This document shows, in pieces, positions 24,695 through 24,969 of a stretch of 64,000 bases of DNA. The stretch covers positions 6,871 through 70,870 of the forward strand of contig JBEKBG010000003.1 of assembly GCA_050015515.1 (NCBI GenBank), written 5' to 3'. This DNA is from Minisyncoccia bacterium (GTDB taxonomy: Bacteria > Patescibacteriota > Minisyncoccia > UBA6257 > 2-01-FULL-56-20). The notes beneath the pieces are model-generated. The model made no database searches. It saw only the letters and a program-made list of their open reading frames with translations, and had not been told where the DNA came from. Position 1 is the first letter of the stretch. The number at the start of each line of letters is the position of its first letter. The translations under genes and the position numbers were made by a program.

Positions 24695-24969
24695 GGCTTG
24701 AAAGTGAAATCTTTCCGATCCTTCACGCTGGAAACAACCGGGATGACTGGGTTAGGGCCTTACCCGGAGCTATGCGCGGTGTGGTACTACCCCTTTGATT
24801 GTTATCAGTCAGGAGTTGCGCCTCGTACTCTCCCTCCTCCTGCCTCAAGCACTTGCTCGTTGGCTTAGACGGTGGCGTTTCAGCCGCCGGCGTCAGGTGT
24901 TCGGAATCACCCTACTAGCCACGGGGGAGATGCCTTATCCCATACCACGGGGATTGTTCAGCCATTATT
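24695..24969 (+). ncRNA. candidate structured RNA (unknown class) closed by a 21-bp long-range helix; strand uncertain
   Basis: tccgatccttcacgctggaaa (24695-24715) pairs with tttccagcgtgaaagatccga (24949-24969) with 2 mismatches; GC-rich internal local hairpins; no convincing protein coding signal. Confidence 0.3.

Follow-up and report, generated by a model that had tools for sequence, protein, structure and literature searches.

What is the GC-rich block (~55%) that lies between AT-rich flanks inside the ATP synthase operon of a Minisyncoccia bacterium? In the window analysed here, a contiguous stretch of 64,000 nucleotides, a low-GC insertion holding this block separates atpG (22520-23455) from atpD (~25850-27285), and the block is bounded by a long inverted repeat. 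A first-pass annotation had taken the repeat for a P1-like closing helix of a structured RNA and had speculated on an antitoxin-like role beside a MazF/PemK-like gene. Taken as a whole, that interpretation is partly supported: the repeat does close a conserved structured RNA, and the proposed link to the toxin does not hold. Comparison with related loci shows an element that is single-copy, conserved, structured, non-coding, without an Rfam family and independent of PemK. The interval 24713-24990 is best explained as the gene of a new structured non-coding RNA (ncRNA) of a Minisyncoccia (Paceibacteria-type CPR) clade, a reading given a probability of roughly 0.6.

The inverted repeat and the block it encloses

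The two 21-mers of the repeat are present as first described, 233 nt apart and reverse complementary with 2 mismatches, but the coordinates were off by 19 nt: the arms occupy 24714-24734 and 24968-24988, whereas 24695-24715 and 24949-24969 had been given. Their pairing reaches 31 nt at 84% complementarity (24707-24737 with 24965-24995). The arm motif has no third site in the window and gave 0 matches in 100 dinucleotide shuffles.

The PemK-like protein beside the element is found annotated in a MAG of a Minisyncoccia bacterium. Related DNA was drawn from three sets: contigs encoding PemK homologues, an exact-pattern scan of GTDB genomes (3 MAGs of Paceibacterota/Minisyncoccia type) and an exact-pattern scan of JGI metagenomes (17 contigs). 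One further locus, L043, was added by a synteny look-up through atpG; exact-pattern scans of viral contigs in IMG/VR gave 0 matches. There are 15 distinct full-length copies, from peat metagenomes and MAGs, and several truncated ones; the alignments (A2 and A3) hold 14 of the full-length copies, L043 being the fifteenth. Homologues found by exact-pattern scans are close relatives only, and covariation among them comes from few independent events. Since the searches reached only such relatives, the family is documented in a narrow clade. Across the 14 aligned copies the mean column identity is 92%, and the atpG and atpD DNA of the same loci (80-90% identical) is less conserved than the element. 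The limits of conservation coincide exactly with the closing helix; to its left, the flanking DNA of one locus has no relation to that of another. A covariance model (R1) scores the copies at 310-339 bits and finds one full copy per locus in 243 kb searched; the window holds one, and the element was not found repeated elsewhere in it.

Even substitution over codon positions, together with frame-breaking indels, means that the element is not coding. Between the window and the corresponding locus L012, substitutions at the three codon positions number 9/10/14, 14/14/18 and 5/7/6 in three local ORFs, the second set belonging to ORF 24795-25031, and the element of L002 carries frame-breaking indels of +4 and +1. 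These results agree with the initial impression that this ORF is not genuine. A protein-coding gene, for example a MazE-like antitoxin in the same ORF, was rejected, there being no third-position bias, a broken frame and no Pfam match at E<=1. Sequence searches of the neighbouring and internal ORFs against Pfam, NCBIfam, PADLOC and PDB gave no firm match; the weak ones were PemK_toxin at E=0.0014 (below cutoff), HNH for a gene of L012, and coiled-coil noise for a 126-aa protein encoded upstream of atpD.

Known RNA families fare no better. Rfam 15 (4227 models) gave no match at E<=10 on either strand of the element (24695-25005, 311 nt, scanned with the most permissive filters) or of its surroundings (24500-25800, 1301 nt); at the gathering score, the window and 16 related loci returned only tRNAs. 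The families covered include RNase P, 6S, SRP, tmRNA, group I/II introns and the cobalamin riboswitch, as well as HEARO, OLE, raiA, ROOL and GOLLD. ARAGORN's 6 tRNAs all lie elsewhere in the window, and at the element it detects neither a tRNA nor a tmRNA. RNase P P4 and SRP domain IV motifs are absent from the element, as had been judged by eye, and the ARAGORN and Rfam results bear out the earlier view that it is neither a tmRNA nor a cobalamin riboswitch. Retron msr/msd, DGR template repeats, IscB/TnpB omega-RNA and IS110 bridge RNA were considered and rejected, as no reverse transcriptase, IscB, TnpB or IS110 gene occurs among the flank ORFs examined and the element has no second copy in the window. 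No relevant description of a structured ncRNA in CPR, Patescibacteria or Paceibacteria was found in the literature.

Fold and strand of the RNA

On either strand, RNAalifold gives a P1-closed four-way junction enclosing a second, nested four-way junction, and 99.1% of the alignment cells form standard pairs in the plus model as in the minus model. Changes on both sides of a pair occur at 9-10 pairs on either strand reading, distributed over P1 (4), Pg (2), Pb, Pe, Pa and Pf, so that the covariation check suggested at the outset came out in favour of a conserved multi-helix fold behind the P1-like helix. None of 500 column shuffles reaches these pairing values, and sliding the partners by 1-3 columns leaves 0-2 such pairs. 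Single-sequence folding of 24700-25000 against shuffles gives z = -3.11 on the plus and -4.57 on the minus strand. The features of the minus-strand model, in the order of the predicted transcript, are as follows.

25008..25035, minus strand: sigma-70-type promoter, TTGACT (25035-25030), 16 nt, TACACT (25013-25008), reading into the element
24991..25001, minus strand: short 5' leader between start site and P1, with an AGUUC motif; placed from promoter geometry
24713..24990, minus strand: RNA core, 278 nt, in which a single closing helix leads into a four-way junction, with a second such junction nested inside
24965..24989, minus strand: P1, 5' strand in RNA sense, the right arm of the inverted repeat; 24 pairs with 24713-24737, 4 of them compensatory
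24932..24962, minus strand: hairpin Pa, GCY...RGC plus AUCCC/GGGAU, with the invariant loop CGUGGUAU
24829..24930, minus strand: helix Pb domain, in which Pb itself is 24923-24930 with 24829-24837 and encloses Pc, Pd and Pe
24889-24920, minus strand: hairpin Pc inside the Pb domain, with a UCCG loop
24868-24888, minus strand: hairpin Pd, whose 3/3 variable columns stay paired on the minus reading only
24842-24864, minus strand: hairpin Pe, with pair 134:143 as AU or GC
24783..24822, minus strand: hairpin Pf, with a tip (about 24795-24810) variable in length and sequence
24738..24767, minus strand: hairpin Pg, CCGGG...CCCGG, with 2 compensatory pairs (CG/CG, UA/UA, CA/UG)
24713..24737, minus strand: P1, 3' strand in RNA sense, the left arm of the inverted repeat; in L023 a fully compensated, perfect 20-bp version

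Several helices vary in ways that keep them paired. Pair 31:57 of Pa occurs as CG, UA or UG, and so does pair 64:159 of Pb; Pf of L031 has a double change from C-G to U-A (plus-alignment columns 77:110). The local CCGGG...CCCGG hairpin noticed in the first pass is Pg (24738-24742 with 24763-24767), and it too has compensatory changes in relatives. Long stretches of the predicted loops and junctions are invariant. One of them, the Pa loop sequence GUGGUA (minus sense), is perfectly complementary to an invariant UACCAC at 24781-24786 and forms a candidate pseudoknot with it, both sides lacking variation and hence covariation. The tip of Pf differs in almost every lineage and can still form a hairpin, and the loop of Pg holds a ~268-nt insertion in 4 loci, where the remaining element is still 92-98% identical. 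Such behaviour is expected of peripheral hairpins in a functional fold.

The RNA is most likely a stand-alone, P1-closed product of the minus strand. On sequence evidence, transcription from that strand is quite probable, given the conserved promoter, same-sense units in two loci, the better fold, the pairs in the middle of P1 and in Pd, and plus-sense terminators upstream. All 12 distinct copies located in the atp operon carry TTGAC[T/C], exactly 16 nt and TA[C/G/A]A[C/A]T on the minus strand. Mean identity is 0.91 in the -35 and 0.89 in the -10 element, compared with 0.65 in the spacer and 0.64 downstream, and the spacer sequence is completely different in L022, L040 and L043. The element promoter is found also in L041, L024 and L043, in the last with an extended -10 that matches 10/12 positions. 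Transcription would start near 25001, and most copies keep AGTTC in the leader that follows. The whole unit is legible in one sense in L041 and L024: promoter, 18-22 nt, RNA, 19-21 nt and a hairpin-plus-U terminator. The window has no clear terminator after P1, and the L033 lineage has no recognisable minus-sense promoter.

The rival that fares best has the same structured RNA made from the plus strand, as the 3' tail of the upstream gene or of an atp transcript that is processed to the P1-closed core; it appears unlikely, though it agrees with several observations. All the neighbouring protein genes lie on the plus strand, and the plus model accounts for its 99.1% of paired cells with 10 compensatory pairs. 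It also contains a 9-bp stem, P3 (A2 columns 63-72 / 114-123), with 3 invariant G.U pairs that are A.C mismatches on the minus strand, and two one-sided changes that turn G.U pairs of the plus stem into G-C favour the plus strand as well. The mid-P1 pair speaks the other way: 9 sequences have U.G there on the minus reading, 3 have U-A and 2 have C-G, and on the plus reading the majority form is a C.A mismatch. The minus consensus fold (-101.65 kcal/mol, against -89.76 for plus) is 12 kcal/mol better, and it leads the plus fold both in further compatible pair types (28 versus 18) and in covariation score (0.112 versus 0.088). No plus promoter is conserved, the left flanks are unrelated, and the promoter that is conserved points the opposite way. 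A plus-sense terminator hairpin, moreover, stands ~20 nt upstream of the element in L024, L041 and L035, and therefore leaves no room for a plus promoter. Wobble counts were discarded as a means of deciding the strand, since the model of either strand attracts G.U pairs of its own (97 against 121 cells); among the 42 pairs common to both models there are 5 G.U and 5 A.C cells. The variable tip of Pf, which at first resembled U.G support for plus, was likewise discarded: after shifting the register by one base, minus-sense hairpins form equally well.

The minus promoter is enclosed by the arms of an AT-rich inverted repeat of 16 nt (24987-25002 / 25030-25045), in which L012 and L022 show a compensatory A/T swap; an RNA that starts from this promoter could not contain the repeat. 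An operator, a terminator of plus-sense read-through and chance are all conceivable explanations; being followed by a T run and covarying in these two loci, the repeat counts as a possible terminator on the plus-strand reading. The element promoter stands back-to-back with the plus-strand promoter of the downstream gene, and the two have a -35 palindrome in common.

Neighbouring genes, inserted cargo and the toxin cassette

The usual gene order is atpG, a variable gene, the element, the back-to-back promoters, the gene of a 126-aa coiled-coil protein, and atpD. A 55-aa ORF of the window (25641-25808) is a short relative of this protein. The variable slot is occupied by a membrane-anchored protein of the hyp347 family (347-798 aa), by a minus-strand HNH gene or by nothing. 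Proteins of the hyp347 family (window 23604-24647, L043 7240-9567 and the contig of P0003; 347, 775 and 798 aa) share a conserved N-terminal membrane anchor, MNRRGSVMLVVVLIIV..., and have no informative family matches; their slot lies between atpG and the RNA gene. The HNH gene (L012:314-673 / L022:~5416-5652, minus strand) encodes a 119-aa endonuclease, lies 15 nt after P1 in RNA sense and is confined to one lineage; it is probably a free-standing homing endonuclease that uses read-through from the RNA promoter. The lineage of L023, L029 and L033 has the element at a non-atp locus: on one side lies a HAD hydrolase gene, on the other a 141-aa gene that precedes xseA. Relatives whose atpG is 82% and 70% identical have atpG and atpD adjacent and no element within 5 kb, for which reason the RNA may be clade-restricted and dispensable.

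Insertions of several kinds are found at these loci. The ~268-nt insert in the Pg loop (L030:2904-3171, L031, L034 and L037; equivalent to ~24753 of the window) has 30-nt perfect terminal inverted repeats and two long internal hairpins, and in L031 the interior runs opposite to that of L030 and L034; the insert is either a MITE inserted both ways or a segment flipping between its own repeats. A 72-nt sequence is repeated exactly, in inverted orientation and 29 kb apart, at 23479-23550 and 52506-52577. Its first copy sits within a ~144-nt palindromic element (23443-23586) directly after the atpG stop, and L031 carries a related sequence in its left flank. By its appearance this is a small structured repeat element. 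At 7155-7222 of L043, upstream of the 775-aa hyp347-family gene and on the side away from the RNA gene, there is a 66-nt duplicate of the left end of the RNA element, which is the 3' end of the RNA in minus sense. The element of L036 is truncated (~272) at the same junction as this duplicate, after ...CCGCGC in RNA sense, which points to a possible hot spot of recombination within the RNA gene. The 66-nt duplicate is present at one locus only (L043), and no integrase was seen.

Against this background of insertions, the element itself might be a MITE or the relic of one, its terminal repeats being transposase sites and its interior having no function as RNA. Conservation does end precisely with the inverted repeat, the region is pieced together from insertions, some copies enclose a genuine ~268-nt element bounded by terminal inverted repeats, and many metagenome contigs break at or inside the conserved block. 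Assemblers break contigs at sequences common to co-existing strains, so such breaks are expected at a strain-shared sequence. The reading is nevertheless improbable. Across the 243 kb searched, the element occurs in one full copy per locus, and it occurs once in the window; it is syntenic, with the same orientation relative to atpD in every locus, and the flanks of 13 copies show no target-site duplication. Nor would a MITE account for compensatory internal helices, invariant loops and a conservation that exceeds that of neighbouring essential genes.

A still less probable proposal, and the one first put forward, is that the element is a type III-like RNA antitoxin or some other cis partner of the PemK/MazF-like toxin. 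The toxin gene does lie downstream, at a distance of 131 nt (ATG at 25120) rather than the ~150 nt first stated, PemK adjoins the element in the window and in 6 other sequence types, and no protein antitoxin ORF is evident. The association is loose in both directions: among 19 scorable element types, 7 have PemK and 12 do not, and conversely 4 PemK lineages lack the element. The PemK homologues of the latter, 59-68% identical, lie between scpA and dnaX in 3 lineages and elsewhere in L016. TRF (minimum score 30) finds no tandem repeats inside 24713-24990, as the first pass had also noted for repeats of the ToxI type, and there are no direct repeats either. A promoter pair separates the element from PemK, the RNA being probably encoded on the opposite strand. 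These observations dispose of the antitoxin-like role as it was proposed. PemK is mostly absent, one lineage has the element outside the operon, and in relatives atpG directly adjoins atpD; the element therefore neither partners PemK nor belongs to the atp operon as a cis-element.

On either side of the PemK cassette stands one copy of a 28-nt direct repeat (82% identical; 25031-25058 and 25599-25626). In both copies, which are promoter modules, two promoters stand back-to-back and have their -35 palindrome (TAGTCAA/TTGACTA) in common, reading T(A/G)GTCA-18-TTTAAT on the plus and TTGACN-16-TAnnnT on the minus strand; similar TTTTTTAAT(G) motifs precede other genes in related loci, for example in L033. 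The duplication of the module on both sides suggests that the cassette was inserted later, between the promoter and the coiled-coil gene, which again tells against an antitoxin.

PemK has, besides, a small RNA gene of its own.

25510-25569, minus strand: small convergent sRNA immediately 3' of PemK (gene with promoter 25510-25603)

Its promoter consists of TTGACG (25603-25598), 16 nt and TATCCT (25581-25576), and the predicted RNA forms three hairpins: a covarying one, another capped by a UUCG tetraloop, and the terminator hairpin (25536-25518), with its U run right beside the stop codon of PemK (25507-25509). The fold has 16 pairs, 4 of them compensatory. This sRNA follows 8/8 of the distinct PemK homologues examined, including those at the scpA/dnaX loci, and no protein antitoxin is conserved near these homologues. 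It is a candidate RNA partner of the orphan MazF/PemK-like toxin, and the original intuition that some RNA accompanies the toxin may fit this universally linked gene instead of the element.

The weakest alternative, an inverton whose repeats are recombinase sites flipping an internal promoter, draws on the inverted repeats that flank ~230 bp beside promoters and on two contigs (L002 and L003) that begin exactly at the left repeat, and it is scarcely credible given that the interior keeps the same orientation relative to atpD and the right flank in all copies (>20 contigs from multiple metagenome samples), that the left flanks of these two contigs are different DNA rather than the inverted interior, and that the ORFs and gene calls of the flanks examined include no recombinase gene.

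Proposed role and comparison with known systems

If the structured RNA is encoded on the minus strand, the TTGACT-16-TACACT promoter would drive transcription into the element, divergently from the promoter of the downstream gene, which is usually that of the 126-aa coiled-coil protein, followed by atpD, and in the window the inserted PemK cassette. The product would be an RNA of about 290-340 nt with both ends locked in P1. Its invariant loops and junctions might bind a conserved partner, either a protein or another RNA. As the genes on both sides vary between genomes, the RNA could be imagined to act in trans, as a scaffold, regulator or catalyst, and not on its neighbours. The 3' portion of the gene and the adjoining promoter module might, in addition, serve as anchors for the insertion of cargo by recombination. 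It is rare for an RNA of a few hundred nucleotides to combine a complex fold with near-invariant loops, and earlier examples proved to be ribozymes, ribonucleoprotein cores or large riboswitch-like devices; the reduced genomes of CPR bacteria are poorly understood. It is a tentative and, on balance, doubtful extension that the element represents a new, functionally important class of large, CPR-specific complex RNA, acting as a ribozyme or ribonucleoprotein core and possibly replacing a housekeeping RNA that is hard to find in such reduced genomes, and that its gene is at the same time, in the manner of tRNA and tmRNA genes, a landing pad for cargo that splits the ATP synthase operon.

The element offers a concrete candidate, with a defined sequence, a structure model (R1) and a predicted promoter and ends. 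In these bacteria, the essential atp operon is split by an RNA gene and swappable cargo cassettes, and the small convergent RNA that always accompanies the orphan MazF/PemK-like toxin may be the real RNA partner sought in the first-pass annotation.

Several known systems resemble the locus in part. Type III toxin-antitoxin systems (ToxI/ToxN, CptIN, TenpIN) likewise place an ncRNA beside a gene of the Kid/MazF-like endoribonuclease fold without a protein antitoxin. In ToxIN-like systems the antitoxin consists of tandem direct repeats with units of about 34-36 nt, lies upstream of the toxin and is co-transcribed with it from the same strand, with only a terminator between them, and the two co-occur obligately. 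The element, unlike these, has no tandem repeats, is not co-transcribed with the toxin gene, lies probably on the opposite strand and does not co-occur with it across genomes. With MITEs it shares inverted repeats bounding a non-coding block of ~280 bp, but the element is single-copy and syntenic, and its internal helices covary. The variable cargo beside a conserved RNA gene recalls the integration hot spots at tRNA and tmRNA genes. Islands that integrate into the 3' ends of such genes leave partial duplicates, and the 66-nt duplicate of L043 resembles an attL/attR pair; in contrast to those hot spots, however, the element has no tRNA-like features, no integrase was seen and the duplicate is found in a single locus.

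Among housekeeping RNAs, RNase P RNA, 6S RNA and SRP RNA are similar in having ends paired in a long P1, a stand-alone gene and a conservation greater than that of the neighbours. The element differs from them in lacking a covariance-model match and P4-type or domain IV motifs, and in its two nested four-way junctions, as opposed to the rod of 6S RNA. Orphan bacterial ncRNAs such as the raiA motif, OLE and HEARO/IscB omega-RNA also measure a few hundred nucleotides, with multi-helix junctions and very conserved loops; they too have a narrow phylogenetic range and were recognised by comparative sequence analysis only. Unlike raiA, OLE and HEARO, the element has no match in Rfam and no adjacent gene of the IscB/TnpB type, the sole HNH gene nearby (119 aa) being restricted to one lineage. 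The element is, without a relative in Rfam, a previously undescribed RNA family of a familiar general kind.
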